Positions 6,345-43,305 of a stretch of 45,168 bases of DNA are shown one piece after another (within the stretch, counting starts at the first letter, position 1; each line of letters starts with the position of its first letter). Origin of the DNA: an uncultured delta proteobacterium (GTDB lineage: Bacteria > Desulfobacterota > Syntrophobacteria > Syntrophobacterales > Syntrophobacteraceae); contig CAWEHK010000047.1 of assembly GCA_963808625.1 (NCBI GenBank), forward strand, positions 1-45,168, written 5' to 3'. Position numbers and translations under genes: made by a program. The notes under the pieces are model-generated. The model did not search any database, was not told the DNA's origin, and saw only the letters and a list, made by a program, of their open reading frames with translations.

Positions 6345-9300
6345 TCACCGCATCGCGGCAGCTTTATTCAAAATCTCCTCCACCCGGCGCAGATGTTCCA
6401 CCTCGCTCGACCGGCAGTCTGGTTCGGAAGACTCCCTTACCTCCCCTTCAGGCACGGGCGCCCATAATTCGATACTGCTCTCTGCGGGGTTTGGTCCAAA
6501 CGAATCGAAGAGCTTCGGTCCCGTTTCCCCACCGGCCACATAGAGACGCCCGCCCATGAGTTCGCCGGTAACCAGGGACCCGTGAGCCCTGGGCATGGAC
6601 TGTTTTGTGGCCAGTTTCCCGGTGACGGGATCAAAGAGGTGGGTCCTCCCAGTTCCCTCGGCAATGGCGATCTTTCCGCCCAGGGGTGCGGCGGTGTCCC
6701 ATCCGGTAAGGTTCAGTTTGGAAAAGGATAGAGAAGACGCCCACTTATTGGTCTTGGGGTTGAAGATTTCGATCTTGTCATTGCGCCAATTGCCTCCAAT
6801 GACGTATATCTTCCCGTCCAAAACGGCGGTTGACGACCCGTAGCCGGCGGTCGGCATGTCGGCTTTTTGGGTAAAGCCCAGGGTCGCGGGATCGAACTCC
6901 CACGTTGTGTTCAACGGGCCGTATCCTCCGAAGAAATAGATCTTACCGTCGTATATGGCAGGCTCGCTCGTCCATTCGAGATTCGGCACAGTACCTCCCA
7001 GAGGAGACAGGATTTTGGTTGTCAGGTCATACGTCCAGCCCTGGTCCCCCGGATCGGAAGCGTCGAAAATATAGATCATGTTCGAGAGGGCTGCCGCCCG
7101 CAGCAGATAGCCCATCTCGCCGACGTCTTTTTGGCTCCAGGTCTTGGTCGAAGGGTTATAGATGCGAATTTTGCCCCAGTTGGCCGGGGCGCCGCCACCG
7201 ATGACATAGAGTTTGCCGGCCGCCACCGCCGATCCTGCCCAGTCAGCACCCGTGGGCATTGCCGCCTCGGAACGCCAACTGTATTCGCCGCCAGGCGTGA
7301 CGCTGTTCGAGGCAGCCGAAGGCGGGCCTGTGCCCACCGCGTTGGTGGCTGCCACGGTGAAGCTGTAAGCCGTGCCATTGGTCAACCCCGTTACCGTGAT
7401 CGGGCTTGACGCCCCTTTGCCGGTCTTCCCCCCCGGACTCGAGGTGGCGGTGTATTCGATGATCGGACTGCCGCCGTCGGAAGCCGGCGGAGTGAAGGTG
7501 ACGGTCGCCCGGGCGTCGCCGGTCGTAGCTGTACCAATGATGGGCGCCCCGGGTAGTCCCGCCGGCGTGATGCTGTTCGAGGCGGCCGAAGGTGGGCCTG
7601 TACCCACCGTGTTGGTGGCTGTCACGGTGAAGGTGTAGGCCGTGCCATTGGTCAACCCCGTTACCGTAATCGGGCTTGACGCCCCTTTGCCGGTCTTCCC
7701 CCCGGACTCGAGGTGGCGGTGTATTCGATGATCGGACTCCCACCGTCGGAAGCCGGTGGGGTGAAGGTGACGGTCGCCCGGGTATCGCCCGCCGTGGCGG
7801 TGCCTATTGTTGGCGCTCCGGGGACCGTGGGGACCGTAGTGCTGATCATGATGGTCCCTGACTTAACGCAGCCCACGCTCCCCGAGACGGCCGTGAGCGT
7901 CCACGTGTAAGTGCCTTCGACGGTGTAGGTGTGAAAAGGATTCCGGCTGGCCACCGCCGGAGATTTGTCTCCGAAAGTCCAGGTGTAGGTGACGGCATCG
8001 GCGCAGTCCCTGGTGGAAGCGCTTCCCTGGAAGGAAACCGGGGATGCGGGTGGGGCCAACGAGGGTGCGGTGGCGGTGCAGGAGACGCTGCAGGAGCTCG
8101 TGCCAAAGACCGTGGCGCCGACCGAGAAGCTCGCTTTCTGCTTGCCGTAGACACCCAGGTACCAATCACCGCCGCTCAGAGGTCGCGGGGTGCTCGCAGA
8201 GGTCACGGTGATCTTCTCCGAACCGGTGGCGCCGTTGGACCGGTAGTCATGGTTCGAGAGGCTCGGTTTCGCGCCCTTTCTGAGGTAGAGATCCACATTG
8301 CCGGAAGCGGTACCGGTGTATGCCTCGAGAGAAAGGGAATCGCCCGGCACGGTAATGCGGAAGAACTTCCAGGCTCTGATGCCCACGGAGTCGCTCACAG
8401 GGATGCCGCTCTGGAGCTGGCGTACGTGCTGAGGCGGAGGAGTGCCGGAATACCAGGGCTCGAAGGCGCGGATTCGTTGCCGGCGCCGTCGAAGGCGACC
8501 ACAGCAAACCGGTATTTCCCACCCGCCCGAAGGCCCTCCACCCGGGCGCCGGTGCCGGCCGGGGCGGTCACGCCAAAGGGATACCCCGGCAGGGCCGGGC
8601 TGTCGGTGTAAAGGATGCGATAACCCTTCACCCCGGCACTGGGCGGTGCCGTCCACTGGAGCTGGCAGACTGTACCGGAAAAAGACCCGGTAAGGTTGGT
8701 CGGCGGTTTTATGGCTCCGGAGCCGATTTGCAAGGGGTTGGCATAGTAGGTGATCACCGGGGGATTCTTCCCGTCGTCGGTGCGCGCGAAAAGGTAGTAG
8801 GTGCCTCCGGTCACCCCTTGGGCGTTCCAGACGGCGGATACGGTTCCCGATGCGGCTGAGAGGTTCTCGGCGATGGGCTCGCCCATCCCGCCGTCAGCAA
8901 GGTCTGAGACAAAGAGAGAGACCTTTGTGAGCGATGAGGCGGGACGGACGGAAGCCTGGATGCTCACCTCGCCGGCAGTGACGCCGACTGCGGTGAAAGT
9001 GGTGGTCGGGGTGGGGGTGGGGGCAAGACATTGGAAGGTCACATCGGCATCCGCGAGGTTTGTCACACCCAGCGTCCAAGTCCCGGCGATGGCTTCATCC
9101 ACGCGAAAGAGGGCCACTTTGAGGCTGTTGTCCGCCGCGTAATGGACGTCCGGATGGCTTCCCACGTCAGCAGGCGTGATCGTGGCGCCCGAAGGGGTCT
9201 TCAGGTAGATGGCCGGAAGTGCCACAGACGGGTCGTTGGCCGCAACGGCGAAAAGGGCCTGGCGCTGGGGCGTCGCGAGCGTAAAGCTCCGCTCGGCGGA

Positions 9301-11286
9301 GGTCTTCGCGAGGGCAGCTTTCGCCAGACCCAAACCGACAACATCGGCGTAGTTCGGACCCACAAGGAGGGAGAAATCCTCATTGTCATATTGCAACACG
9401 ACTGCCAGGCTGAGGGGACCGATCTTCTGCATTCCCCGAAACATCCCCTGCCAGCCGTTCTGTCCGGGACTGATCAACATATCCATGTCCACGGCGTTGA
9501 GGGTGAGTGGCAGGGTCACAGCCGAGGTGAGCGCCGTCTTCACTGCGCGGCAGGGAGCGTTGTACCAGGAACAGGAAAAATCGGGGACCTGGAGCGTCCC
9601 CAGGCTGCCGCCAGCAATGGTTTTCTTCGAGACGCTCAGAAATCCGCTGACGTTGGATTGGTAGATGCCTGCCAGGTCCGTCCACCCCTTGAAAGTGACT
9701 CCGGCGAAGTGGGGCTTGAAGCTGATGCGGCCCGAGAGGTTTCCTACGGGGAAGCCCAGGAGGTTCGCGGTGCCGCCTTCCAGGACCATCAGGTAGGGCC
9801 GCTGATATCCCACGCCCACCTGACTCAGGGTGAAAACCTCACCGGGTACTTCCGCGATGCCCAGATCGCCCCCAATGAAGATGAAAAACTTGGGAACGTC
9901 GCAGATGTTGTCCACCTTCAGGGTGAACCCGGCCAGGCCGAGGCCCGTCGTGCCGAGGGGAATCGGGTCGGGGAGGCCGATGGCGATGTCGAAGCCGTTG
10001 AGCCCCGCCCCATCTGCCGAACAGGAGGGCTTGATACGAATGGTGGCGCTCACCGACCAGGTGCCCATGAAGGGAAAGCCCACGGACACACTGCCGGTGA
10101 ATATGTCCGTGTCCGGATCGTAGACGCCCGACATGCCGAAGAACTGGATGCCGGGGGAAAGCTGACCTTCGATGAGCTCAAATCCCAGGAGCGTTTTCTG
10201 GCCTCCGGAAACATACAGGATGTTCCCTTTGAAGGAGGCGAGAGTGAGGGCCGCGTTCCCGATGTAGAGGGTCGGCTCGATCTTGACGCCGTCAGTCTCG
10301 AGAGTGATGGGAGTTCCCGAGACCAAGAGCGGCAAACCCGCCAGGGACGCCGCCCACTGGGTCCCGGTGAGTTTCGGCGTAAGGGTCCCCGCAGCCCCGT
10401 CCACATCGAAGGAGAGGCCGGGGCCCTTAAGGAGCGTCTCCTTCGAATCGTGCTTCAGTTTGACGAAGACATCCCCGTCCGTGGCAAGAGTCCCATGCCC
10501 GGTAGCAGGGTCGCCGGTGAAGACGGAATCGGCGCTGAAAAAGAGCATCCCGTTGATGTTCACGTTCCCCGAGAGGGTGTAGATGTTCTGCGCCGGGTCC
10601 TTGCCGAGGCTTTGCCCACAGATGGAGAGGTCGCCCACCTGGATGCAGTTGGACACAACGATGATGTCCCCGGCGCTCGCACAGCTCCAGCAGTCCCCCA
10701 GCGCATAGGCCCAGGTGGAGAAGGTCCACTTGTACACACCGCCCTGGGTGTACGTGTGACTGGCGTTCATCCCCTCGGCGGTGGCCCCGTCTCCGAAGTC
10801 CCACCCGTTGTAGCCATAGTCCGAGCAGGTGGATGTTCCCGTAAAGTTGACGGTGAGGGGCGGGGGACCCGGTGTGTAGGGGGCGGCGGCCGAGCAGCCA
10901 AAATTAGTTCTGGCGACATTCACGCGCCCTGACCGGGTGCAGGTCGCGCCGTCGGCGCTGGCGGTGAAGGTCCAGTCGAAGTCCTTGCCGTAGAATCCGG
11001 GATCCGGGTAGGAGTGCGCGGGGTCCTGGTCCGTGGAAGAGGCTCCGTCTCCGAATGTCCAAAGATATTGGACGGGACTTGTGCACCCTGCGGGGACGGC
11101 CACCCCCGTGAACTGCACCGGTTGCTCAGGAAGGGTCCAGTAGGCGGACACCCCCGCGTAGCAGGTGATGGCGCAGGCCCCCTCGTTCCGGTCCCTGGCG
11201 TCCGCCTGAGCGTACCCCGCAACCGCCATGGCAAGCAACATGGCCGCCACAACCATCCTCACCAGACCTGAAAATGCGGTTCTCAT
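6345..11286 (-). CDS. Large secreted/surface protein: signal peptide, PKD domains, beta-rich region, FN3, PPC, PKD, 2x FN3, Kelch beta-propeller (frameshifts ~8470 and ~7700)
   Basis: Three consecutive ORFs in shifted frames; WTFGDG/WDFGDG PKD motifs, [28 protein letters not shown]3, KLYVIGG/KIYFFGG/KIYVIGG Kelch repeats. Confidence 0.85.
7300..7825 (-). repeat. Two tandem near-identical FN3-coding repeats (~264 bp)
   Basis: Repeated GCCGTGCCATTGGTCAACCCCGTTACCGT.ATCGGGCTTGACGCCCCTTTGCCGGTCTTCCCCCC at ~7370 and ~7640. Confidence 0.85.
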
Positions 11287-11512
11287 GACTTCTTCCTCTG
11301 TCTTTCCGGGACCAAACCGACCTGCCTCTCTCTTCTTCCCTATACCCCATACCCCGCTTTTCATAGAAACCTGGGAGATGACCAGAAAATGGTGACGGGA
11401 AATCACCCGTTTCAGCTTGCCGCGGACCCTGTGGAAGTTGTCAAGAAGGTCTACAGGACCCACTGGCTGAAGCAGGGCATTAAGCAAAACGGTTCTATTG
11501 TGACCGGCACAA

Positions 11513-12302
11513 TCATGGAGAGCAAGAAGTATTCTTTGTCTTGCGGAACCCATGTTCGAAAGCTTCATCGTAGAGTTTCGATTTCTTCAATTCTTTCCCG
11601 TCGCGTGAGCCAAACACTTCGCCGATCATGATGATGGCCTGGCTGCGAATGCCGGCAGCTTTCACTTTCGCAGCAATATCAGCGAGACTGCCGTGCACGA
11701 AACCCTGATCCGGCCACCCCACGCGATGGGCGACGATGACCGGGGTGTCATTGCCGTAAGAGGGCGCGACCTCGGCGACAACCTCTGCAATTTGCTGTAC
11801 GCTCAGGTAAATCACAAGCGTCGCGCCATGGCCGGCAAGTGAGGCTCAGCCGTTCCGCTTCAGGCACCGGGGTGCGCCCTGCGAGCCGCGTCAGGATGAC
11901 CGTCTGCGAGACTTCCGGCAGGGTCAGCTCCTGCTTCAGAGCGGCGGCCGCGGCGAAGACTGCCGATACTCCGGGCACCACCGCGTAGGGAATACCTTCC
12001 TGGTCCAGCAGTTGCATCTGTTCCTGGATCGCCCCGTAGAGGCTCGGGTCCCCCGTATGCAAACGCACCACCCGCTCTTCCAGAAGATACCCTTCGCGGA
12101 GCAGTTGATGCGTTTCCGGGAGGGCCAAAGAGGCGCTGTTGAAGACCCTGGCGCTGGCCTTTCTCCCTTCAAGGAGTGCTTCCGGAACGAGGGACCCGGT
12201 GTAGACAATCCGGTCTGCTTCCCGGACCAGCCGCCGGCCCTTGACCGTAATCAACTCGGGGTCGCCGGGACCCGCTCCCACAAAATAAATAGGATGCTTC
12301 AT
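11513..12302 (-). CDS. cbiF: Cobalt-precorrin-4 C11-methyltransferase (frameshift ~11840)
   Basis: YFVGAGPGDPELITVKG, RLHTGDPSLYGAIQEQ, ELTLPEVSQTVILTR, C-terminal SKLYD..F.HGFR. Confidence 0.95.
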
Positions 12303-25945: not shown

Positions 25946-26021
25946 GGGCCGTTAGCTCAACTGGTAGAGCAGCTGACTCTTAATCAGGAGGTTTGGGGTT
26001 CGAGTCCCTAACGGCCCACCA
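25946..26021 (+). tRNA. tRNA-Lys (CTT)
   Basis: GGGCCGT acceptor stem, D-arm TAGCTCAACTGGTAGAGC, anticodon arm CTGA CT-CTT-AA TCAG, GTTCGAGTC T-loop, encoded CCA; 76 nt. Confidence 0.97.
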
Positions 26022-26038
26022 AGAAAATCAAGGGGTTA
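25973..26038 (+). repeat. att core, left copy (3' half of tRNA-Lys plus 17 bp)
   Basis: CTGACTCTTAATCAGG...CCCACCAAGAAAATCAAGGGGTTA, identical to 36374-36439. Confidence 0.95.
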
Positions 26039-26116
26039 CGGATTTTGGCCTGTGACCCTTTTTTGTTGGTGTGTAAATAGTGTGTAAATCTTCGCCGCTG
26101 AACACCCAAAAACGAA

Positions 26117-26145: not shown

Positions 26146-26260
26146 CTCACCAAATGAAATTTCCCATCACTTCACCAGGCCCCGCGAGGGCGAGCCGGAC
26201 CTGCCGGAGGTCATGTAATGCCGCTGCCGTGAACTGGCAAATAGTCAAAGGGCCAAATTA

Positions 26261-26428
26261 TCAAGGTCCGCCGCGCACACACCGGACGTAATAGTATGTA
26301 GGTCTTATAGTCCGCAATACTGCGTAGCCATCGTTGAAATTCACGCCCCACGCGCAGTCCGGGTAGTCGCCGACGGTACTGCTCGACCAGTAATAGTCCG
26401 AGCGGCAGTCAAACACCGGATCGATGGC
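26261..26428 (-). repeat. DGR-type variable repeat (VR), C-terminal copy
   Basis: Matches 28011-28175 except at positions 1-2 of NNC/NNT codons and a short indel-shifted stretch. Confidence 0.8.
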
Positions 26429-28830
26429 CGGGCTGTCTTGATCTTACCACGATGGTCTATCAGTTCATCGATCGGTGGCAGGCGCCAGTCGTCATGGCCG
26501 CCCAATACCAGGTTTGCACAATATTGACCGGCATCAGCCCAGTTTCGCCTGTCCCGTCATCGCCCTTTTGCCACATGAGCCCAGTCTTATTGTCCGTAAC
26601 CGTCCCATCCCCATTATTCACATACCTCAAAGTGAAAGTGAAGTTGAGATCGCTTCGTGCAGCGCTGAAATCCATTGAACCCGGAAAGAAACTGTTGTCG
26701 TCCTTGAGGGCGTGACCCTGTAGGTGGCGCCGCTGGCGAACCCTGACTGGCTCCAGTTTCCGTTTGAGTCTGTGGTCACGGCGTAGGAACCGTTCACGCT
26801 CCCGGAGATCAGGCTAAAGGTCATGGTTACCCCGGAAATTCCTGTCCCCGTCACTCGTCGCCACCCGACCCGAGACGCTAAAGACTGTGGCAGGGTCTAC
26901 CGGCGTTACACTGTTGGATGGACTTGAGGCCGGACCGGTTCCAACCGCGTTGGTTGCCGTTACCGTGAAGGTATAGGCTGTCCCGTTGGTCAGCCCGGTC
27001 ACCGTTATCGGGCTTGACGCCCCGGTGGCCGTCTTCCCGCCAGGACTTGAGGTCACCGTGTACGAGGTGATGGGGCTTCCTCCGTCTGAAGCCGGAGCCG
27101 TGAAGCTTACCGTTGCCTGGGCGTTCCCTGCCGTTGCCGTTACCCCTGTCGGGGCTCCCGGTACTGTGGCACGGCGTTACACTGTTGGAGGGACTTGAGG
27201 CCGGACCCGTTCCAATCGCGTTGGTTGCCGTTACCGTGAAGGTATAGGCGGTCCCGTTGGTCAGCCCGGTCACCGTTATCGGGCTTGACGCCCCTGTTGC
27301 CGTCTTGCCGCCAGGACTTGAGGTCACCGTATACGAGGTGATGGGGCTTCCCCCGTTTGAAGCCGGAGCCGTGAAGCTTACCGTTGCCTGTGCGTTCCCC
27401 GCCGTTGCCGTTACCCCTGTCGGGGCTCCCGGTACTGTGTAGGCAGAGTCTACCGGCGTTACACTGTTGGATGGACTTGACGCCGGACCCGTTCCAATCG
27501 CGTTGGTTGCCGTTACCGTGAAGGTATAGGCGGTCCCGTTGGTCAGCCCGGTCACCGTTATCGGGCTTGACGCCCCTGTTGCTGTATTCCCACCAGGACT
27601 TGAGGTCACCGTATACGAGGTGATGGGGCTTCCCCCGTTTGAAGCCGGAGCCGTGAAGGTTACCGTTGCCTGGGCGTTCCCTGCCGTTGCCGTTACCCCT
27701 GTCGGGGCTCCTGGTACTGTGGCAGGGCGTTACACTGTTGGATGGACTTGAGGCCGGACCCGTTCCAATCGCGTTGGTTGCCGTTACCGTGAAGGTATAG
27801 GCGGTCCCGTTGGTCAGCCCGGTCACCGTTATCGGGCTTGACGCTCGCGAGTTGCCGTCTTCCCACCAGGACTTGAGGTCACCGTATACGAGGTGATGGG
27901 TTTTCCCCCGTCTGAAGCCGGAGCAGTGAAGGTTACCGTTGCCTGGGCGTTCCCTGCCGTTGCCGATACCCCTGTCGGGGCTCCTGGTACTGTGTAGGAA
28001 GGAATGCTCCAAGGTCCGCCGCGCACACACCGGACGTAATAACTGTAGTCAGTCTTATGGTCCGCGTACACGCCGCCACCGTGGAAATTCACGTACCACG
28101 CGTGGCCGGGTTGTAGACGTAGGTACTGCTCGACCAGTAATTGCCCGAGCGGCAGTTAAACACCGGATCGATGGCAGGATCAAATCGGGAATAGTCGATA
28201 ATCGTTTCCAACTCATCAATGTTTGGCAGCCGCCAGTCATCATAACCGCCAAGAACCAAATCCTCACAGTACTGTTTGGCATCAGCCCAATTTCTATACT
28301 TTTCCATCATCAGCCCGCTGCCAGATCAAGCCGGTCTTGTGGTCTGTCACGGTTTCATTATTGTCCGCCAATGAATAACGGACGATGGAAACCTGCTTCG
28401 ATGAAGCCATTCTTGCTGCTTGCCACCACCGCACCGTAGTAATATTTCCCGGACAATCCGTTGATCGGGAATCCAATACCTTCGTGGTCGTCTTCTTGCT
28501 TTGCCCAGGCGCCAGTCCCTGTGGAAAATGTCACATTTTTCAATAGGCGGTCGGTAGCAGGGTCAATCGTCTTGTCCGTGGACAGGTAGAGCTCCACCTG
28601 GTAGGCACCTGAAGCTGCGTACCCTGGTTCTTCACAGTGTAGGTCACCGATATGGTCTGGTTAAGAAAGGCCGTAGCAGGACCAGAAACCGAAGTAACAA
28701 CCAGATTGGCCCCGGCACCTACCCCCGCGACCGGAAACTCATCCTGTGCTTGTTGCGCAAGCGAAATGGTTGCGATGAATCCCAGAAACAAGCAAATGAC
28801 TGCAATCAGGAAACTCTTCTGTGCTCTCAT
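26261..28830 (-). CDS. Secreted modular adhesin-like protein: signal peptide, CARDB-like, DUF1566 (Lcl C-terminal, CLec-like), 4x FN3, beta-sandwich, DUF1566; several frameshifts; putative DGR target
   Basis: [27 protein letters not shown]; two copies of TVTD.KTGL.WQ...W.DA..YC..L.LGG.DDWRLP.IDEL...YWSSST...AW.VNF...[12 protein letters not shown]3 repeats between them. Confidence 0.88.
26900..27995 (-). repeat. Four tandem near-identical FN3-coding repeats (270-282 bp units)
   Basis: GGGGCTCCYGGTACTGTG recurs at ~27151, 27422, 27704 and 27977; [19 protein letters not shown]...SNSVTP. Confidence 0.92.
28011..28175 (-). repeat. DGR-type variable repeat (VR), internal copy
   Basis: See 26261-26428; ends GGCGGACCT-TGG (read-through) instead of GGCGGACCT-TGA. 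Confidence 0.8.
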
Positions 28831-30569: not shown

Positions 30570-33258
30570 ACAATCCATTCAACCGCCGTTACAGGTGAGT
30601 CCCACACCTCGCAAATCGGCTTCCGTCAACAATCCGGCCTTCATGCTGTAGAAATCCATTTACCAAGTCGCCGCGGTGGGATTTTTCCACTTTCGCCTGA
30701 AACCTCGTCTAAAATGTCAAAAAATTCCAAATCCGTCCTTAGCTCAGCCGAATGGCTTGTGCTACCGTTCCGCCGCTTTTCCCAAAAACACGTTTCCACT
30801 CGTTTTGTAGTGCTTTCAGGCGGGTTGTTTCCGGGTCGAGGTCAAAACTGAGGTCAATTGACTTCGCCGGGTCACCAACTTCGAGCCAGCCATTTTCACC
30901 AATCCAGCAAACGGCATTTCGAACAAAGTCTGACTCCAAACTTCAAAAGCAAGCCATGCTGCCGCCGTCATGTTTGAAAGCCGCTGTCAAGTGCGCCTTT
31001 GAGGATCACCAAAACAGCGCGAACAAGCTCAAGGCGGTGCGCTTGCACAAAACTGAGCGGGTCCAGGTCAAAGCGTCGTTCGTGTGGTTTTTCGCAGTGT
31101 GGGTCAATTGAAACACGGATAAGCCGCCGGTTGAGGTCGCCAATAATAATCGGGTTGTTGCCGGAGAGGATCACCAGCGCAACGGGTCTTCCGGCAATGG
31201 TTGAATTTGAGCCAAGCAAGCGGCCTGAATATTGCGGACTGTGCTCAAGAAGGCGCAAAGGACTTTCGCTTTTAAGCGGTCGCGCCAGGTTGTCGAAAAT
31301 GACGCAGCGTGAGAAATAGCTCGAAGCTCGGTAAACAGACGTTTTTCCCATTTCCTCTTCGTCGCGTCCGGCACGGTGACACGCTTGCCGTTGCGCCTGA
31401 AAGAGCTGCCAGGACAAAGCGCGAGCAAAGTCTTACCTGTTCCTGCGACTGGTGCTGAAATGAGAAAACCCGGTGCGGTCGGTAATAACGGCCTGGACTA
31501 GTCGCGGTTAGCAACGCCGCCAGGTAGCCGCCGCCGTCCACGGGTGAGACAAACGGAAACTTTCTCAAAGGGCTTCCACAGATCCAGCCACAGCAGCCTT
31601 GACGGTTTGCGGGTCGGTTTTTCCGGTATGTTCTGCCATGACTCGTTTTGCCGGAAAATGCAGATAAAGGCCAGTTTGGTCGTCGAAGCCGTCTTCTTGA
31701 ATCAGCGGCCTTCCGGTGTCATACTTGGTGCGGTCAAGACACCTTCGAGCGTGGGAAGGGTCCATTGTCCGGCCATAGCGCAAAGGGTCCGCGCGAGGGT
31801 CAACGGACAATCTGTAATTTTCCATTTCTCAGAGCGCTTATCAAACTTCTGGAATTGCAGCAGGCCGGTGAGATACCACGCCAGCCATTCAGCGGAAACC
31901 GGATAAGGTTTGCCGTCGCTCAAGCGTACAAACTCGCCTTCCCTGGCATAAACAACGCCGTCCAGCCGCATGAGTTCAAGGCATTTCGCGGTAAGGTTCT
32001 GCAAGTCGCCGCCTTGGAATATGAATGATCTTGACGGCACGGTGCAAGGTGAAGCGTTGTCCGCCGTGCGCATGAGATAAAAAGATAGGGTTTGCCTGCC
32101 GCCTTGAGGTTCACGATTGCAATGCGTCGGTCACTGCCGATATTCCGGTTCGAGCGGGTCCGCGAAGCGTGCGCCATGAAACTTGTCCGGGTTGTCGAGG
32201 ATCGCCGCCACGGTGACGGTGCCGTATTTTTCAGCTCACAAGCTCGAAGTCACCTAAAAGCCGTTTTTGCGTGACGGCTCGCTCAGAAGATTTCGCCGCA
32301 TTTCTTTTCTTTCCTTGCCGTTCGGCACGGCCTTCAAGCGCTCTTCAATCCATTCTGCTTGTTTCGCCACGCTGGCCGGTTGTCTGCGCCTGGCGTGCCG
32401 CACTCTTGAGCGTTTCAAGTCGCCGCCTGCTCTTCCGGTGACAGGTCAGCCAGGGTCCGCGAGTCCATGAAAGGCTGCCGCGCCGTTGAATAGCCTTGGC
32501 TCTTCCCGTCGCTGCTCGAGTCCCGGTCCGCATTGTGCGCCGCCTGCAAAGTCCAGCCTTTCCGGTTGCCACACGGAAGCGTCAATATGCGAACGGTCCA
32601 GCAGCGCGCCGCTTGCCGAAATGTCGAAACGGCCAAACCCGGCCAGCCACAACCGCCCATAAAGCACCGCGCCTGCTCGCGGTATGTCTTGAGCGTCAAG
32701 AACAGGCACATAAACACGCTGACCCATAACGCCGCGCAGCTCCGCGCCGGTGTCGGTCCGGTAAATGCAACTCGAAGCGCTTTCCCGCCAAATATGCGGT
32801 GCGGCTTCGCAGTTCCGGCCACACGCCATAAAGCGCTGTCAAGAAGCGCTTCCCTGCGTGAACGGCGTTGCTGTCCTTTGCCGGGTCGTAGTCCAGCATG
32901 AGCACGCCGGGTCCGTCCGGCCAGGTGAAGTGCTCCCGGTCCCTTGCAACAACGGGAAGCTTGCCGCGGTGCTTCTTGCAAAGCGTCCTCTTGAGGAACA
33001 ACAAGCGCCTGGTCGTGCTCACAAACGCCGAAGGTAAGCGCCTGGTTCGGTTTGAGTTCGGCCAGCAGCGCGCAAAACTCCGCAATGGACAGGGTGCGCC
33101 GGGTCGCCGTGCCTTCGGTAAGACTGTCCGCCAGGGTGCTTTTGCAGGGTGCCGTCTTCGGCAGGGTGAATTGCTTTGAAAGGTAAGGCGGTTTCTGTGG
33201 CGTTTATGACGCTCAGAGTCACAAAGTCGTTGACTTGAAGTGTCTCAGGTTGATACAT
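30570..33258 (-). CDS. Primase-polymerase/helicase replication protein (many frameshifts)
   Basis: Fragments GVLMLDYD, DASVWQPERLDF, FQKFDKRS, LEGVLTAP, Walker A-like SAPVAGTGKTLL, FDNL, SGNN...GDLNRR. Confidence 0.75.
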
Positions 33259-33627: not shown

Positions 33628-33819
33628 TCACTTTGCACCTCGTCCGGCTTCGGCCAACTTCTCAAGCTCTGCCAAATCAACAAAAACAGCGCCGCCAATC
33701 TTGCAAAACAGTTTTGGGAATTTTCGAAGCGTCCTCCATTTGTAAAACGTGCTCCGTGCGAAGCCGGTTTCTTCTTCAAGCCGCTTCTTGTCTCGAAAGG
33801 GAATGAGTCTTTTAACCAT
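33628..33819 (-). CDS. Excisionase / AlpA-like DNA-binding protein
   Basis: 63 aa, basic, TGFARSTFYKW...P.LF.KIGG.VFVD winged-HTH pattern; position between integrase and primase. Confidence 0.75.
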   Translation of the reverse strand: MVKRLIPFRDKKRLEEETGFARSTFYKWRTLRKFPKLFCKIGGAVFVDLAELEKLAEAGRGAK

Positions 33820-33996
33820 GTGCTAATCCTTTCCGGTTTGGGTTTTTTGAATGTTCAAACGGATTGTATTAGCTGGTTTTTTTGGCGTTAATATCGGCGG
33901 GTAAATGTCGGGTAAATGTCGGGTATTCGGGTACTACTAGAATGGCATTATCGTGGAGTTTATAAAAAGCGGTAAAAATAATACCCGATAATCTCG

Positions 33997-35067: not shown

Positions 35068-36206
35068 TCAATTCAATGCACATCGGCTTTGCGTTTCGGT
35101 TGCAGCAACTCCCCCGGCCTTGACCGCCGCCGCTTGCACTGCGTCCGGGTTCAAGTGAGCATATCTCATGGTGGTTTGCGCTTGCTTGTGGGAAAGCAGC
35201 TTGCCGACAACGGCCAGGTCAACGCCATTGCTGATAAGCGTGCTTGCAAAGTGGTGTCTGATTCCATGAAAGCGGTAGTTCTCCGGCAAATCAGCGGCCT
35301 TTCTTATCTTTAGCCACGGTCCTTTGAAATCGGTGCGCTGCTTTCCGTTCTTGCCAGGGAAACAAAAATCAGAGGTACGGTTTAACCCTCGAAGCACGTC
35401 AAGCGCCTGCTGGCTAACGGGTACGGTCACGGTCTTCTTTCCCTTCGGGTCCGGCAGGGTAATCATGCTCCGGTCAAAGTCACGTGGCTCCATTGCAGCT
35501 TGAAGAGCTCGCCGCGCCGGAAGCCGCTGAACAAGAGCAAACTTGACGAACGCCGCCGAATCATCGAAAGGCCAATTGTCGAGCACTGCCATAAGGCGGG
35601 AAAGCTCTTCGTCGGTCATGTACTCGGTGACTTGGTTGTCAACGTGCGGCATTTCCACGCCCTTGACCGGGTTCGGTCCCTGGTAGAGGTTCCACTTGAC
35701 GGCAAGGTTGAAAAGACGCCGCACAAGGATAAGGTGATGCTTGATACTTGCCGGCGCGAAGGGTCTTCCGTTCTGACTGACAGCTTTCTTAAGTTCGCCT
35801 TTCATCCGCTCCAAATCAAAAGCACTGATGCTCTCAAGCGCCTTTTCCCCGAAGCGCGGTTCAATGTGCTTCCGATAGTGGTAATCGTCATCGCGCCAGG
35901 TCTTCTTATTTTGCTTGCGCCCAGGGAAGGTATTTCTCCCACACCTCGTTTAGGGTGACAGGCTTTTTTTTTGCCTGGTGGTGGGTAATGTCAAACTCTT
36001 CCCGCACCATATCGGCCTTGATGCTTGATTCGAGCTCCCTGGCAATGGTGAGGTTGTCCACCACGCGGGTTGACCTTTGGCCTTTGACGGATACCTGAAC
36101 GCGGTATTTCCGGGTCCTGTCGAAAGGCTTCTGACACTTCGCCGCAGACTTTGGCAGTTAAGGCGCTGCTGGTCTTGCACTTCGGACAAAAAATCTGAAT
36201 GCTCAT
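35068..36206 (-). CDS. int: Tyrosine integrase with N-terminal CxxC zinc ribbon (frameshifts)
   Basis: CPKC N-terminus; R..FNLA..W...NP; RFHGIRHHFAS..GVDL..VGKLLSH...TTMRYAH; next to att. Confidence 0.92.
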
Positions 36207-36373
36207 GCTGCCCCGCTCCTGCCCCGGCCTGTAAGGGGGTGTGTAAATAGTGTGTAAATTTTCAGAAAACAGAGGCTAATTTCGTCTCAAATCGTAATGA
36301 GACAACTATCATGAAGTCATTGAATTGTCAATATAAATCTCAATCTATCAAAAGGTAGGAAAAGCTATTGAAC

Positions 36374-36439
36374 CTGACTCTTAATCAGGAGGTTTGGGGT
36401 TCGAGTCCCTAACGGCCCACCAAGAAAATCAAGGGGTTA
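36374..36439 (+). repeat. att core, right copy (duplicated tRNA-Lys 3' half)
   Basis: Identical to 25973-26038; lacks tRNA 5' half. Confidence 0.95.
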
Positions 36440-36513
36440 GCGATTTTGTCGCTGCCCCTTTTTGGCTTTTGGAGGGGATTTTTGCCAAAATTTTGCCAAA
36501 AATGCTGTCAGTG

Positions 36514-37070
36514 TCACTTCCTTTTGGTTCCCGATTGCATTCGCCGGAACATGGCCTCGAGGGTTGATCCGTCTTCCGTGCCGCGCAGATTTTCCACGTA
36601 CCGACTGTAGACCTGGATCACCATTTCGGCATCCCGATGCCCCATGACCTGGGCGATCCAGAGGGGATTTTCACCGCAGCTCAAGGCCACGGTCGCAAAG
36701 GTGTGCCGGGTTTGTTTCATCTCGCGCAGCTTAACACCGGTTCCCCTTAAAGCCGGAATCCAGGCTTTCCTCCTCAGGTTGCTCAAATGAATCGCGCACC
36801 CGTTGGGAGTGCAGAAAAAATACTCGCCGCCCAGAGAATCATGGATTTTCTTCTGTTCCTGGAGAGGTTCAAGCATTCCCTCCGTTAGCCTGGTTCTCCT
36901 TCGGCTGTGCCTCTTCTTCGTGTTTCCTTCGCATCTTCCGCCATGCTTGTCCGGGTGATCGCGCGCTCCACGTACAACAGGCCTCTCTCCCAGTCGATGT
37001 CGCCGGGCTTCAACCCTATCTGCTCTCCTGGACGCAGGCCGGAGCGGATCGCAAAATCGAATTAGGGCCT
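36514..37070 (-). pseudogene. Second tyrosine integrase, catalytic-domain remnant
   Basis: FAIRSGLRPGEQIGLKPGDIDW (box I, other frame) and QTRHTFAT..GENPLWIA.VMGH....VYSRY; no N-terminus. Confidence 0.85.
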
Positions 37071-37098
37071 GCAATGATCCGGGAGTCCTCGGCGCACC

Positions 37099-37842
37099 TT
37101 GATCAGCGTCACCTCGCCGTTGGGCTGCCAGCGCGGCACCTTCCTCGAGCGCACGACGGAAGACGCCGAGCATCCCATGAAAATGTGGTGGTCGCTTCGA
37201 AGCAGCCTCATTCAAAAGCTGGTCGAGCGTGAGGACACCGAGCACCGTTTCTCCGAGCGCCAGCTCAAGACCGCCCTGGACGGCATCCCGCTCGTGGGGC
37301 GCATCGATTCCTACCAGGTCCGCTTCCTCCAATACGGCATTCTCAAGGACTGGAAGAGCATCGGCGACAACGGCCTCCAGTAGATCATCCATGACGGCGC
37401 CAAGGAAGAGCACATCTGGCAGGCGAACATCTACGCCTGGCTGCTCCGGCAGAATGCCTGCCCCGTCAATTACATCGAGATTGCCTACCTCACCCTCATG
37501 GCTATTGTCAAAACCGGCCACCAGACCACCTACTACGAGTATTTGAACGAAGCTCCAAAGCCGTCCGGCCGGCGCAGGGACCTGGCCGCGCTGCCCACCC
37601 TGGTAAAGTCATATCCTTCCGGCAAGAAGAAGTGGGCCTGCGTCTACAACGTGCCCCCTGTACCGCTCTATGACGACAAGACCGTCGAGGATTTCATCCG
37701 GCCTTGCATGCATGTCCTCGATGACGCGTTCCATCGCGGCATCATGCCGCCCACGGTCCCCGACGACATCCGCGCCTGGAAAGGCGCAGACTATTGCTCG
37801 GTGAGCAATGTTTGCGCCGACCTGGAACGCGCCGCAGCCTAG
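37099..37842 (+). pseudogene. PD-(D/E)XK (Cas4-like/phage exonuclease) nuclease with internal TAG at 37381-37383
   Basis: GRID...LKDWKS...*...WQANIYAWLL...YCSVSNVC in one frame. Confidence 0.7.
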
Positions 37843-37879
37843 TGCTTGATGGCGTTAATTCGCGAAACATTATCTCAGT

Positions 37880-37939
37880 CGTCATTCCGGCGTGCTCCCC
37901 GCCTAAAGCCTGCGGGGACAAGCTTTGGCCGGAATCCAG
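37880..37939. repeat. REP-like palindrome (GTCATTCC...GGAATCCAG family)
   Basis: CGTCATTCCGGC...GCCGGAATCCAG with inner CCCCGC..GCGGGG hairpin. Confidence 0.6.
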
Positions 37940-38012
37940 TCTTCATGCGGTGGGGCAACGGTTTAAAGATAGGTCAAGAAGTTCTGCAATCAGGCACAAG
38001 AAAGGAGTCCCC

Positions 38013-39106
38013 TTGAAAATCACCAGGTTCACCGCGGAAAACATCAAGCGGCTCTATGCCGTGAGTATCGAGCCCGATCAAAACGAACCAATCGTGAACA
38101 TCACCGGTCCCAACGCCGCCGGCAAATCGAGCGTCCTCGATTCCATCTGGATGGCCCTGGGCGGGTCCGCCGCCGTTCCGGAGATGCCCGTCAGGAAGGG
38201 CGCGACATCGGCCCAGGTCACGCTGGATCTCGGCGATATCCTGGTCACCAGGACGTTTACCCACAAGGGCACCTGTCTCAAGGTCTCGAACAAGGACGGC
38301 CTCGAGTGGGAGTCCGCCCAGACCTTGCTCAACACACTCGTTGGAAAACTCGCCTTCGACCCGCGGCCTTCATGCGCCTGGATGCCGCCAGGCACCGCGA
38401 AGTCCTGCTCTCGCTCGTTGACATTCCCATCGACTACGGCCTACTTGCCGAGCTTTCGGGAGCCGCCGTTGCCAATGGTGGTGACCCCATGAAAGCCCTC
38501 GCTGCGGCCAATGCGGAAGTCTACCAGGCGCGCACGGCGGTCAATCAGCTCGGGAAGCAGCTCGAAGCCGCCCACGAGGCGATCACGATCCCCCCCGATG
38601 TTGACGTCGTGCCGCCCGTCTCGACCGCCGACCTCATTGCCGAGCGCGACGCCCGCGTGGATAGCGTTCGCAGGAAGCAGGCCATGCGCGAGGAACTCCG
38701 GGACCTCGAAGATCAACTCAAGGCGCAAAAGGAGGAGTGCAACGAACTCGCCCGCCGGCTCGCTACCTGCAGAAAGGCCATCAGCGATCTCGAAGCGCGC
38801 GTCTCACACCAGCGCACCACGGTCGCCAACCTCATTGATCCCACCTTCGATGACATCGAGGCCAGGATCAGGGACTCCGACCGCCTCAACCATTTGGCCG
38901 CCGATATTCAGCGCAAGCGCGACCTGGCCGCCGGCCTCGCGGCCAACAAAGCCAGGGCCGACGACTTGACCTCGAAACTCACCGCGATCCAGACCTGCAA
39001 GGAAGACCTCATGGCGCAAACCATCTTCCCCATCGTGGGCCTGGACTTTTCATCTGAGGCTCATCTTACAGAGGAGAGAGATTTTAGAGTTTCGGATTGC
39101 TCCTGA
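38013..39106 (+). pseudogene. Phage-type SMC/SbcC-like AAA ATPase, frameshifted and C-terminally truncated
   Basis: AAGGAG RBS + TTG; AENIKRL, ITGPNAAGKSSVLDSI, FDP..F, coiled coil; second ABC half missing. Confidence 0.75.
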
Positions 39107-39245
39107 TGGTAGTGCGTACGGTACTCCGAGGGATACTCTATCACGGAGCCAGGAAGGAGTCCTCTGGGAGTGTGCTTTTCCGGAAACCGGTGCAGGGGAG
39201 CATTATCAAATTCTTAATACGCAGTGAAAAGCCCAGGCAAACGTC

Positions 39246-39650
39246 TTAATCTTCACTCCAGTCTTCAAGCACCAGTCCCGGCACCCGTTCAAATTCTTTG
39301 ACATTGTTTGTCACCAATATCAGGCCGAGCGCCCGGGCTTGGCCGGCTATCATCATATCGTAAGGTCCAATGGGCCGCCCCATTCGATAAAGTGCGGCTC
39401 GAATCTGTCCAAAATGATATGCGGCTTTGTCTTCAAAGGGCAGCACTTCAAGCCGGGCGACCATGGCCTCGATGTCCGCCAGATTCCGTTCTGCCTGTTG
39501 TGAATGTTCCGCACCAAACACCAATTCCCCCAAAGTTACAGCGGAAATGCCCATCCTGCCGTGATGAACCTCAAAACGTCTTTTCACCTGTTGAGGACGG
39601 TTCTTTAGAGTGAAGATGACAATATTGGTGTCGAGCAGGTATTTCAGCAT
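39246..39650 (-). CDS. vapC: Type II toxin, PIN-domain ribonuclease
   Basis: KYLLDTNIVI, ELVFGAE, IGPYDMMIAG.A, LVTNN.KEF.RVPGL. Confidence 0.95.
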   Translation of the reverse strand: MLKYLLDTNIVIFTLKNRPQQVKRRFEVHHGRMGISAVTLGELVFGAEHSQQAERNLADIEAMVARLEVLPFEDKAAYHFGQIRAALYRMGRPIGPYDMMIAGQARALGLILVTNNVKEFERVPGLVLEDWSED

Positions 39651-39886
39651 TCCATGCTATCCCGTCGTTGGTCTTCCGGTTGCTTTCGCTCCCTCATGAA
39701 ATCACTGGAAACCCCCGGTGCCTTGAACCACTCATCCCAAGATTGTCCAACGGGCTGAATCATGCGTTTGTTGCCAACCGCTGTGATTTCAACGTCCTTC
39801 ACAGATTCCGGAAAGGCAACTTCCCTTGGCAGGCGAACAGCCTGGCTCCGGTTACTCTTGAAGATCCTGGTTTTCACGCAAGTCAT
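39644..39886 (-). CDS. vapB: Type II antitoxin, AbrB-type
   Basis: FKSNRSQAVRLPREVAFP...V...WDEWF...VSSDFM..R.QP. Confidence 0.95.
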   Translation of the reverse strand: MTCVKTRIFKSNRSQAVRLPREVAFPESVKDVEITAVGNKRMIQPVGQSWDEWFKAPGVSSDFMRERKQPEDQRRDSMEC

Positions 39887-39941
39887 AACGCTACCTCACA
39901 AAACGAAATATTGGTCTTGAAAATACTATATAATCCACAAA

Positions 39942-39962
39942 GGATATGTCAATAGGATATAC
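39942..39962 (-). promoter_or_regulatory. Putative vapBC operator / -35 region
   Basis: GTATATCCTATTGACATATCC imperfect palindrome containing TTGACA upstream of vapB. Confidence 0.55.
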
Positions 39963-39974
39963 GTCCCACGCATC

Positions 39975-40277
39975 ATGCCACGGGTCTTTGTGTTATTCAA
40001 ATTCCAGCCCGCTTCGATCGTTGAAAAGCTCTTCGCCCGCAACTTGTTCACCAAGGGCGAATCGGCCCAGATCATCGAGACGCTCTTCGAACTGATGAAA
40101 CAATCCTTGCAGGACGGCGAAGACGCCATGATCAGTGGGTTTGGAAAGTTTTGCGTTCGGGAAAAGCACCAACGGCGGGGCCGAAACCCTCAAAGCGGAG
40201 AGCCAATGACGCTGGCCCCACACAAAGTGGTCACGTTCAAGTGCTCCACGGTGCTGAGGGAGAAGATGGAATGGTAA
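39975..40277 (+). CDS. Integration host factor alpha-like protein (native N-terminus apparently lost)
   Basis: ISGFGKF.VR.K..R.GRNP.SGE.M.L...VVTFK.S..LR; usual M.LTK start absent. Confidence 0.75.
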   Translation: MPRVFVLFKFQPASIVEKLFARNLFTKGESAQIIETLFELMKQSLQDGEDAMISGFGKFCVREKHQRRGRNPQSGEPMTLAPHKVVTFKCSTVLREKMEW

Positions 40278-40402
40278 GAATAACCGCCGATTCCAACCCG
40301 ACGTAACCAGTGGCGCAGAATGAATCCATGATGCCATCGGGGAAGGTTGGCTTTCTGAACAGGAAACCCGTTTCAGAATGTTCACCTGTCCCGAGCTGCT
40401 CC

Positions 40403-41145
40403 TCAGGTAAAATACCACCCACCATTTACGCTCACCGTCTGGCCGGTCATGTAGCCGTTCTTTACCAGCATGACCACAACGTCGGCCACTTCTTCTACCG
40501 TTCCAAACCTTCCTACCGGGATGCGATCGGGGGTGGCTTTGAGGTCCCCCGTGATCATGTCGGTCTCGATAAGTGCCGGAGCAACCGTATTGACGGTAAT
40601 CCCTTCCTTCACGAGCAGTGTCGCGTAGGAGTGAGTCAGCCCCCAGAGTCCTGCTTTGGACGCAACATAGGGAGGAGCGGTTATGCCGCCGGTATGTGCG
40701 GCAACGGATGAGATGTTGATGATTCTTCCCCAGCGACGGTTTCGCATTCCTGGAAGCACGGCCTGCGTCACCAGGAACGCCGACTTCAGATTGACATCGA
40801 TCACCCGGTCCCAGTCTTCCTCGGGAATATGGTCGAGGCTCGCCCGGTAGACGATGCCCGCATTGTTCACCAGGATCTGGATGGTCCCGAGGTCCCGCTC
40901 TATTGACGCAACCATCTGTGCCACTTCTCTGAGATGGAGACGTCTGCCTGGACAGCGACGGTCTCTCTCCCCAGATCTTTGATCGCGGAGCAAGTCTTTT
41001 CGGCTTCATCCGCGCGCCTGAGGTAATTCACCGCCACATCCATTCCCTCCCTGGCCAGAGCCACAGCGATAGCCCGTCCTATGCCGCAGCTTGCCCCCGT
41101 AACCAGGGCGATTTTTCCTGTCAATTCATTCATTGTCGGTTCCAT
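40403..41145 (-). CDS. SDR family oxidoreductase (FabG-like; frameshift ~40925)
   Basis: ALVTGAS.GIG, LVNNAG, NISS, YVASK, IPVGRFG, TGQ.V.VNGG. Confidence 0.92.
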
Positions 41146-41337
41146 CTCTTCATTTTCATCTCTTTTGCCATAGGCTCTCTGCCGGCCAGAGCGTTGATCA
41201 GTTGATGAGTCGTACCATATGCTCCAACGGCCGATGATGTGACGAAGATTCCCGACTGCGGGATCGAACTGCCTTTGCTGAGATCGGTAAAGATGAGGAG
41301 GTTTGGGCGGGAACCCTGGAACTCGCCTGATAATAAA

Positions 41338-41976
41338 TCATGTCTTCCCGAGCGATCCTTGCCTGCATTGATCCACCAAGTCGGATAAGCACTCGAGGCA
41401 ACGGCGCAGGCTCTCTGCTGATTCGGCGGCAATGTCAGGGCGCCATCCTTTCTCCCTGTTTTCCACAAATTCAATGAGCCGCGAAGGGTAGGCAGGCCCG
41501 ATCTGACGGCCGCTTGCCGGCCTTGGCACCATGTCTTGTTGGATGGCGCGGACGCGAGAATGCCGTGCCAGGTTGACTAGCGTCTGTTTGGGGTTTTCCA
41601 GTTCCTCAGACGCCAAAGGGATTTGAGCAATGGGGACGTGCAGGAATTGAGCAAGATGTTCGCGATCTGCGAGGAGCCATGCCTCCACCTCTCGGACTGC
41701 AACCCGGAAACACATCATTGGGCTTACGGATGGCAGCCACCTGGCCCGAAAAGGTGGTGCGCAGCTAGCATCTTGATCGAGATCAACCATGACAAGCCAA
41801 GGGTTGTGGCGTGCCGCATGGTTGTACCCCTGTAGCTGCTTCAACAAATTCTGCTTGCCATTCTTCCCGTAGACGCGCCCAAGTTCTGCGCCGACGTGCT
41901 CCAGGAGTCGTCGCGCTACCGCTTCATCGACAATCCCTTCGACGGCGACTGAAATTACTTCTGAGACCTCGTTCAT
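41338..41976 (-). CDS. TOPRIM-like protein (DUF4276-like)
   Basis: VAVEG.VDE, VDLDQD, AVREVEAWLLAD; directly downstream of the ATPase. Confidence 0.7.
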   Translation of the reverse strand: MNEVSEVISVAVEGIVDEAVARRLLEHVGAELGRVYGKNGKQNLLKQLQGYNHAARHNPWLVMVDLDQDASCAPPFRARWLPSVSPMMCFRVAVREVEAWLLADREHLAQFLHVPIAQIPLASEELENPKQTLVNLARHSRVRAIQQDMVPRPASGRQIGPAYPSRLIEFVENREKGWRPDIAAESAESLRRCLECLSDLVDQCRQGSLGKT

Positions 41977-42016
41977 TTCATCCAGCCCTTGATACTCTGG
42001 GAACCCTTGATCGATT

Positions 42017-43235
42017 TCACTTGTTTGCTTTCTTTGTCACGTCTCGTTGGGCTTTCGTGGCGTTTGGCGACTCAAGTTCCCCGAACAGTGTCAGTTGATA
42101 GGCTCTTTGGGGGCGTGTTTGAGGGATGACGATGTCGGCCAGGCTTTGCCCTCCCTCGAGGAGGGTTTTGACTTCAGCAAGTGACCCTGAAGGTTTAACC
42201 ACCGTGCCTCCCTCACCGGGAAAGAGCAGGAGCACCTCATCGAGTCCGATCCCTTCATCTCTCAGGATTTCGCTGGAATGGGTGCTGACCAGCAGTTGCC
42301 GCCCCTGCTGACGTTGAGCGCGTGCGAACATTTGGGGGATATAGCTGACTACCTCTGGATGGAGGGAGAGTTCCGGCTCTTCCAGGAGCAAAGGCCCTTT
42401 TCCTTCCTGCAAGGCCCACAGGAGACCGATTAAGCGCAGCGTCCCGTCAGAGAAAACATCTTCCGATTGCCACGCGCCCTTGGGGCGCCAGTGTTCATCT
42501 TCCACGAAGGTGGGGCGTTCCCCGATCATCCCGCTGCAGCTCCAATTCTTGGAGTTGGGGCACGGCCACTCCGAGGGCTCTCTGGATACGCTGCAGTCTG
42601 GCCTTCCTGGTCTTCTCCGGGGTTCGCGCAATGGCCTCCAGGAAGTCCCCTCCGTACGGGTCATTGCTTCGACCTACCGAACGGTCCGGTTCCCGAATCA
42701 GTTGCGGCACTACGTGGAGGTAGCGGATAGAGCCGAAGAACTCGGCCACGTCGCGAAACGCCTGGTTCACGTAAACCTGTTCGAGGTAGGTTTGGGTAAG
42801 GCGCTCGGCATCCTTCTTGTCCTGGTCGTCCGGACGAACCAGGATTTGTCTGCCCAGATGGATCACCTTTTCAGATTTGATGACCGGTCGTCTTTGATTG
42901 TCCTGGTTAAAGGCCAGGGTGTACTCCCAGCGGTTCGGCTCATCCTCAGGGCCAACCTGGACCCGGAAAACAATATCCGAGATGCGGCGCGCCGCAAGGC
43001 AGCGCAGCATGGACACCCCACCCCGCCGCCTGACGGCTTCCTGAAAGCCTCCGCCAACAGACACAAGGTCTCGAAGAAAGCGGAACACATCCAGCAGATT
43101 CGACTTGCCGGAAGCATTCGGTCCCACAAGAAAGACTCTCTGCGTCAGGCTCACTTCAACATGACTGAAGTTGCGCCAATTCTTCAGCTCCAAATAGCCA
43201 AGACTCATGGGCGAGGTGCGCTTGCTGTCTTTCAT
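42017..43235 (-). CDS. AAA_21/ABC-type ATPase (frameshift ~42480)
   Basis: LKNWRNF, VGPNASGKSNLLD..RFL, FSDGTLRL, LLLEEPELSLHP, LVSTHS. Confidence 0.88.
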
Positions 43236-43305
43236 GGCTGAGTAAGTCTCCTTTGCCTCTCCAGGCTGTTCCTTATGGGGTTGGCTCGGTCACGTGTCAC
43301 CAACC

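Follow-up and report, generated by a model that had tools for sequence, protein, structure and literature searches.

A surface-protein gene with two variable repeats of diversity-generating retroelement type in a satellite-like element from a Syntrophobacteraceae genome

A surface-protein gene with two DUF1566 domains

We analyzed a 45,168-nucleotide contig (CAWEHK010000047.1, hereafter the window) from an uncultured delta proteobacterium of the family Syntrophobacteraceae (assembly GCA_963808625.1). The window is contig C47 of this assembly (G000; 4.8 Mb in 54 contigs, 84.6% complete); C-numbers denote contigs, and genomes G001-G006 include congeners, of which seven were available in total. 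Adjoining a tRNA-Lys gene, within an element bounded by attachment (att) repeats, is a gene for a predicted surface protein whose two DUF1566 domains end in tails that resemble the variable repeats (VRs) of a diversity-generating retroelement (DGR). The tail of the internal domain 1 is defined as VR1 and the tail of the C-terminal domain 2 as VR2 (Table 1).

An earlier note on this DNA had treated 26261..28830 as one gene with two DUF1566 domains. Both domains match PF07603 and the modules are all present, but the single open frame is not, as the gene is broken into several frame pieces by many single-base indels. In its first half, 15 frame-breaking gaps occur over 838 bases, relative to a congener homolog that has indels of its own. 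Other G000 loci aligned to congeners have from 0 to about 12 frame-breaking gaps per aligned kb, and the integrase and primase genes of the element are frameshifted too. Among the frame breaks insertions are about as frequent as deletions, and third-position substitutions in the VRs are nil. The frame breaks are likely consensus errors of the assembly. Open-frame homologs combine the same modules (CARDB-Lcl-FN3 in P0033 and P0017, CARDB-Lcl-Lcl in P0002), and the CARDB domain matches PF07705 with E-values of 7e-9 and 9e-10 in two paralogs on contig C9. A C-type lectin fold may be indicated by the PF07603 matches and by a weak match of the family profile to PDB 8Q4E over the Lcl domain (E-value 0.008); a single-sequence search of the PDB returned no matches.

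Table 1. Features of the surface-protein gene and of the att-bounded element in the window
Feature	Coordinates	Strand	Evidence or remark
Surface-protein gene	26261..28830	-	Signal peptide-like N-terminus, CARDB, Lcl_C (VR1), 4 x FN3, SdrD_B-like, Lcl_C (VR2)
Hydrophobic N-terminus, putative signal peptide	28741..28830	-	Translation judged by eye
CARDB domain, approximate bounds, in pieces	28400..28715	-	PF07705 E 3.5e-4 on fragment
Lcl_C/DUF1566 domain 1, internal, in frame into FN3 array	28010..28350	-	PF07603 E 1.4e-18
VR1, part equivalent to the template repeat	28010..28157	-	Identity to VR2 starts ~18 bases further upstream
Four FN3 repeats	26890..27994	-	Starts 27994, 27721, 27439, 27168; 93-94% alike
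SdrD_B/CarboxypepD_reg-like beta-sandwich, weak, below cut-off	26660..26884	-	PF17210 E 3.3e-4, PF13620 E 0.011
Lcl_C/DUF1566 domain 2, C-terminal	26261..26620	-	PF07603 E 1.1e-8 on last 57 codons
VR2, ends in 32-base tract common to VR1	26261..26410	-	Sequence comparison
T-rich repeat, ~8-base period, directly after VR2	26235..26260	-	Candidate target-site mark
tRNA-Lys(CTT), integration site	25946..26021	+	Surface-protein gene adjoins it
att repeat, tRNA side	25973..26047	+	73/75 bases identical to 36374-36448
att repeat, integrase side	36374..36448	+	73/75 bases identical to 25973-26047
Large primase gene, several frame pieces	30650..33244	-	phrog_16593 E 1.5e-25 on piece
AlpA/excisionase-like helix-turn-helix protein	33631..33822	-	phrog_66 E 4e-5; PF05930 E 9e-4, below cut-off
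Tyrosine integrase, frameshifted in assembly	35071..36261	-	PF00589 E 6e-23; phrog_1 E 9e-45

Differences between the two tails

The VR1 and VR2 tails are 83% identical. The earlier note had aligned 35 codons of the two tails and reported differences at codon positions 1 and 2, and this alignment is present in the sequence as described. Its count of 13 changed codons is nearly reproduced: 12 fall within the 23 + 11 gap-free codons of the block, and the thirteenth depends on the placement of a one-base gap in the first copy. Both tails end, as it had also noted, in a common GC-rich tract, which comprises 32 identical bases (26262-26293 and 28010-28041). Including this tract, there are 44 gap-free codons, in which positions 1, 2, and 3 differ 9, 7, and 0 times, corresponding to 12 non-synonymous changes (several of them double) and no synonymous change. 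In 38 codons directly upstream, in the same two domains, the corresponding numbers are 8, 3, and 22, with 17 synonymous and 7 non-synonymous changes, so the ordinary silent divergence described for these parts was recovered. Overall, third positions changed in 0/44 VR codons vs. 22/38 upstream codons (Fisher p = 4e-10).

The reported lack of silent changes applies to the clean blocks and breaks down in the ten codons between the aligned block and the end tract. Here, the second copy has three single-base insertions, the first copy has an extra codon, and third-position differences such as ACT/ACC occur. The 32-base tract is also conserved with the ends of the VR and template repeat (TR) of a related DGR locus (L065, see below), and would correspond to an initiation of mutagenic homing (IMH)-like sequence. 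Change at codon positions 1 and 2 with silent sites reset is what is seen in DGR variable repeats and, at the sequence level, a DGR origin of both VR1 and VR2 is well supported.

Fresh and drifted copies in the host target family

The G000 genome contains 14 PF07603 matches. Paralogs of the first half of the gene are located on contigs C9 (88% and 79%) and C33 (82%), and a copy on C50 has the same tail. We compared third-position differences at 34 VR sites and 38 upstream sites, using the chromosomal paralog copies C9a, C9b, C33, and C50 and the congener copies G001a, G002, G003a, and G006a. Undrifted pairs show 0 VR differences vs. 22 upstream (VR1-VR2), 0 vs. 6 (VR1-C9a, p 0.026), and 0 vs. 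23 (VR2-C9a), and two further pairs show 2 vs. 20 (VR1-C50) and 2 vs. 19 (VR1-G003a). The drifted copies, which serve as controls, have no deficit (8 vs. 8 for VR1-C33, 6 vs. 11 for VR1-C9b, and 9 vs. 7 for VR1-G001a); the values for VR1-G006a and VR1-G002 are 8 vs. 9 each. By this measure, drifted copies change like ordinary DNA. Given the deficits among VR1, VR2, and C9a, we infer a recent reset, after divergence of the genes, in three copies: the two of the element and one on the chromosome. By the rule of three, the 0/34 value limits the divergence since then to about 9% of third positions. As judged from the distribution of its homologs, the gene is a member of a dispersed, mainly chromosomal host family.

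A second large surface-protein gene, in three frame pieces with FN3, PKD, PPC, and Kelch domains, is located at 6345-11568 of the window. Its FN3 repeats are ~72% alike to those of the 26261..28830 gene.

A template repeat of the related type

When VR1 was searched against 61 genomes, matches were detected in nine, including six of the seven congeners. Contig C355 of G049, a genome from the same order and another family, has a target, an avd, and an AAC-rich TR, in this order. This stretch is referred to as L065 (L062 and L065 are one stretch and were counted once). The L065 VR differs from its own TR at 19 sites, of which 18 are adenines in the TR, and a metagenome variant (L064) has all 23 of 23 differences at adenines. 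The avd gene located between the L065 target and TR matches PF22296 with an E-value of 1.7e-7, below the cut-off. At another locus (L063:400-2887), a transposase gene is found directly upstream of an L065-type TR, where avd and the target would be. A core-type target in G000 (G000:C50:10746-13501) is 63% identical to the L065 target, and its VR is internal and followed by further domains.

The L065 TR has A in 41 of 134 columns, and 19 of the 27 columns in which VR1 and VR2 differ fall on these adenines (p = 2e-6). When C9a and C50 are included, the number is 28 of 42 variable columns. From the top 100 homologous proteins we obtained 83 VR-like segments, 55 of which retained the TR spacing. 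Across these 55 homologs, 15 AAC/AAT columns have an entropy of 2.7-3.6 bits, and residues impossible from AAC/AAT-derived codons account for 44 of 825 (5%), compared with 18% in the upstream region, which is a rough control. The L065 TR is, from its sequence, a relative of the template and not the template itself. The suggestion in the earlier note that both VRs were written from one TR is therefore retained in the form that the position pattern and the L065 adenines point to one DGR template of the CLec2/DUF1566 type.

Several observations weigh against this reading. Adenine specificity rests on a foreign TR because the cognate TR was not found, and VR1 and VR2 differ from the L065 TR at 18 and 15 of 93 non-A sites, respectively. 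Eight of the 27 variable columns are non-A in the L065 TR, two in codons that also vary in homologs and six in the indel-rich tail, and the indel-rich assembly blurs this part of the VRs. No RT (reverse transcriptase) was seen beside the L065 TR, where the contig ends 170 bases on, and none of the five RT matches in G049 was classified as DGR-type. Third-position change may also be reduced by codon bias, an effect that the upstream control should take up, and the VR and upstream regions used for the amino-acid control differ in make-up.

A history with no DGR would involve homogenization of the tails by gene conversion or domain shuffling, followed by divergence through point mutations, with positive selection acting on the binding face. 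The protein is modular, with highly similar FN3 repeats, the common tract begins ~18 bases upstream of the start of the foreign TR, and the cognate TR was not found, all of which would fit such a history. We consider it very unlikely, given 12 changed codons with no third-position change (several of them double), variable columns that match the adenines of an independent TR, and the existence of a true TR-VR pair and avd remains for this family. Equally unlikely is an assembly artefact, in which the VR differences or the two-VR gene derive from a noisy consensus that mixed paralogs. The frame-breaking gaps in the gene and the frameshifts in the integrase and primase are what a noisy consensus would produce, but errors would ignore both codon position and TR adenines, domains 1 and 2 differ at 22 of 38 upstream third positions, and fusions of the same modules occur in open frame in other datasets.

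Search for the DGR that wrote the repeats

The search of the element and the rest of the window revealed no RT, avd, or TR, in agreement with the earlier note. The G000 genome encodes four RTs. Two are DGR-type (on C43 and C38) and adjoin their own FGE-sulfatase-type TRs; these DGRs were rejected as the writers of VR1 and VR2, as their TRs are unrelated. Based on motifs judged by eye, the C36 RT is group II intron RT-like and the C54 RT is of another type. The C43 DGR is complete (G000:C43:89579-97540) and comprises avd, a TR (94684-94803), an RT, and two FGE-sulfatase-type VRs, each followed by short direct repeats, with 16/16 and 15/16 mismatches at TR adenines. The C38 DGR (G000:C38:15392-23260, L021) includes FGE-sulfatase targets, an HRDC gene, a frameshifted RT, and a TR downstream of the RT. 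Of four generic bAvd matches in G000, one belongs to the C43 DGR and three have no nearby VR look-alike.

The earlier note had proposed as a check a search of the genome or metagenome for an adenine-bearing TR beside a DGR RT. In the 85%-complete G000 assembly, a cognate TR was recovered neither by blastn of both VRs (word size 7), nor with the L065 TR and its flanks, nor by a 3-mismatch pattern, nor by an AAC/AAT-density scan, which returned 20 windows with the C43 TR as the sole TR among them and missed the known C38 TR. Because all TR pattern scans demanded an exact or nearly exact match, they would not pick up a diverged TR. No cognate TR was detected in the seven congeners. Among 96 genomes of the order, the TR pattern matched one (G049) and the L065 avd query three (G049, G006, and G001, not G000). 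A second TR pattern, scanned against 401 genomes of the phylum, matched only VR1 itself in its own genome. One match in a genome contig collection and two in a metagenome contig collection were all to L065-type TRs, none of them cognate. Pattern scans of viral sequences yielded 0 and 1 non-cognate match, and the seven viral DGRs whose avd is related were all non-cognate.

Decayed cassettes in congeners and the assembly gap

In G006 (99% complete; L068:8755-9800, G006:C2) we identified a target, an avd split by a short insert, and a second DUF1566 gene with PKD-like and further domains, and no TR. G001 retains a 40-codon piece of avd. In G003 (96% complete), two adjacent near-fresh targets (2 vs. 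18) on a 240-kb contig have no avd, TR, or RT between them. The avd remains and the G003 pair together indicate that the cassette was once present in the genus and was lost at least twice, and that fresh-looking VRs can outlast their cassette.

Genes that neighbor the two G003 targets have their match at the beginning of G000 contig C54, whose first bases lie within a P-type ATPase gene (G000:C54:1-8109; L067:1-9840). The matching G000 site would therefore be in an assembly gap, although this pointer is weak, as the G006 and G023 loci have other neighbors. Whether an avd-TR-RT core is still encoded in the unassembled 15% of the genome or was recently lost is about even. The proposal of the earlier note that a DGR of the host or of a helper now acts in trans is not supported: the cognate TR was not found, the two DGR-type RTs of G000 are associated with unrelated TRs, and the congener cassettes have decayed.

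Eight congener RT loci were also inspected as candidates and rejected. Five are group II intron RT-like, two long RTs (G003 and G005) have no A-biased repeat nearby, and the G004 RT is DGR-type with its own unrelated TR. The latter locus (L104:3587-4209, G004:C6) is a different DGR with a TR, VR, and RT, in which 12 of 13 mismatches are at TR adenines.

The att-bounded element and its cargo

The two att repeats enclose 10.4 kb that includes the integrase, the AlpA-like gene, and the primase, and no virion genes were found in the pieces scanned. The integrase-AlpA-primase layout is that of phage satellites similar to phage-inducible chromosomal islands (PICIs). With this layout and its near-identical att repeats, the element is satellite-like, as the earlier note had described it; the list of satellite features that we applied is general background knowledge. 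No packaging-hijack gene (terS, capsid, or size-redirection protein) was detected among the 17 minus-strand pieces of the element scanned against PHROGs, a search whose sensitivity is reduced by the frameshifts. A primase homolog on G000 contig C2 has an open frame of 962 amino acids (phrog_16593, E-value 2e-60) and is 71% alike to the window primase. It is part of a sister element (G000:C2:17414-28500, L110) that also encodes an integrase, a terS-like gene, an ERCC4 nuclease, and a topoisomerase-like gene.

Related integrases were identified in 38 of 80 other genomes of the family. The G001 integrase (72% identical) is located at the same tRNA-Lys with other cargo, and the surface-protein gene was detected in none of seven related integrase loci fetched, three of which were cut short by contig ends. 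The gene thus has the look of cargo acquired from the host not long ago, and not of a constant component of the element family. The proposal that the element spreads a hypervariable adhesin between genomes is not supported by these loci or by the mainly chromosomal distribution of the gene family.

In its strongest form, that proposal holds that the element is a dedicated vehicle for a DGR target, taking it from genome to genome to be re-diversified in trans by any host or helper DGR that it meets. The gene does lie between near-identical att repeats and both VRs are undrifted, targets of the CLec2/DUF1566 type occur in six of seven congeners, and trans activity of DGR parts has been published (PMC5758913, PMC10907252). 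Yet the related integrase loci lack the gene, and suitable hosts look rare, with a TR of this type in one of the 96 order genomes and no match of the second pattern but VR1 itself in the 401 phylum genomes. Viral helpers fare no better, as cognate TRs were found neither in the seven viral DGRs with a related avd nor in the two viral pattern scans. We therefore regard a dedicated carrier of this kind as unlikely.

Beyond the integrase-side att repeat, the window encodes AAA/SMC-like, PIN, and AAA_21 proteins, the last with DUF4276, in a possible defence cluster (36517-43289). Many arrays of 7-base simple repeats, belonging to several families, occur throughout the G000 genome (e.g., G000:C51:6476-6693).

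Sequence downstream of the variable repeats

T-rich repeats like that directly after VR2 follow 12 of 17 VRs (including that of viral L156), 0 of 2 TRs, and 2.5% of random windows, using a pattern drawn after seeing the data. This repeat is a candidate target-site mark. The internal VR1 is without the T-rich repeat found after most terminal VRs. VR1 may have ceased to be targeted when the fusion arose, or may do without the repeat.

In the Bordetella DGR, an IMH and a hairpin suffice for retargeting (PMC3240598), and inverted repeats follow 34% of VRs in a survey of DGRs (PMC5758913). No stable hairpin was predicted after VR1, VR2, C9a, the L065 VR, or a C43 VR, so a downstream hairpin was rejected as the target mark of these VRs. 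Its absence is not defining, because a hairpin is present in only 34% of DGRs (PMC5758913).

Probable origin of the two repeats

In combination, the results make it probable that both tails were rewritten recently by one chromosomal CLec2-type DGR, likely also the writer of a chromosomal paralog, and that the gene was likely captured as cargo of a satellite-like element without DGR machinery. In established DGRs, an RT acting with Avd copies the TR RNA, misreading adenines, and the cDNA is pasted into any site that ends in a matching IMH. If the same steps operated here, pasting would reset silent sites and randomize the AAC/AAT codons of the predicted binding face, and one long surface protein would show two independently drawn binding tips on an FN3 stalk. 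Rewriting could be placed either before or after capture by the element, and the gene may be either a leftover, now frozen, or a target served remotely.

A more far-reaching version, which we hold to be doubtful, is that the satellite-like element carries a surface protein that is diversified in trans, at two sites of one reading frame, by a host DGR in the unassembled part of the chromosome. The element would then export ready-made or still-editable binding variants, with the T-rich 8-base repeat, not a hairpin, marking the targets of this DGR lineage.

If the core is still present, the satellite-like element would carry a DGR target that travels separately from its RT and template and has two independently randomized tips, and target mobility would be separated from cassette mobility. 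The gene would also be a natural test of internal-site recognition, as VR1 is without the downstream repeat and yet as fresh-looking as VR2. If the core was lost, the genus would represent a dated series (fresh, drifting, and dead targets and a broken avd) of DGR output that outlives the machine, extending the Treponema pattern already published.

Comparison with known systems

The element resembles PICI-like satellites in its size (~10.4 kb), tRNA att site, integrase, AlpA-like regulator, and primase, with no structural phage genes found and variable cargo at the far end. It differs in its DGR-type cargo, in having no known helper, and in that neither a terminase small subunit nor a capsid-redirecting gene was detected.

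DUF1566 targets belong to the CLec2 class, or category "d" (DUF1566 and DUF823 as well as Fib_succ_major; Legionella LdtA type), which accounts for ~14% of DGRs in one survey (PMC5758913). The gene resembles the targets described there in its DUF1566 domain, whose C-terminal stretch varies, in its appended domains of adhesion type, and in its GC-rich constant end (PMC5758913). In contrast to them, no RT, avd, or TR is adjacent or was found in the assembly, and there are two VRs, one of which is internal. Internal and multiple VRs are known but rare, the survey listing an internal VR for one CLec2 DGR and three VRs for one CLec1 gene (PMC5758913). The C-terminal domain of Legionella Lcl (PDB 8Q4E) is C-type-lectin-like (PMC11162425); the weak profile match (E-value 0.008) links the Lcl domain to it, and the gene has no collagen region.

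Remote targets were reported for 45 of 372 DGRs (73 such targets, e.g., in Treponema denticola; PMC5758913), and large surveys miss such targets (PMC8144416). Similar to these, the gene is one of a set of dispersed paralogs with one VR scaffold and machinery elsewhere. However, by the definition used there, the genome of a remote target must contain a TR that differs at A only; no such TR was recovered for this gene. The gene is also in an att-bounded element, whereas the remote targets of that survey come almost only from DGRs without phage association, and none would be expected for phage-associated DGRs (PMC5758913). Trans activity has been described at incomplete DGR loci (PMC10907252).

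Leftover targets have been reported in isolates without an RT and TR (PMC4891356). As in those isolates, the VRs differ from the TR of another genome mostly at adenines, no core was found in the genomes that carry them, and the cassette has been gained and lost among close relatives. The reference TR was from the same species in that case, whereas the nearest one here belongs to a different family within the order, and a mobile element holds one of the targets. No report of a DGR target on a satellite was found in the literature searched, supplements excluded, and a table of PMC5758913 could list targets on islands. Remote and leftover DGR targets are thus already known; less usual here are the satellite-like carriage and the presence of two fresh VRs, one of them internal, in a single gene.

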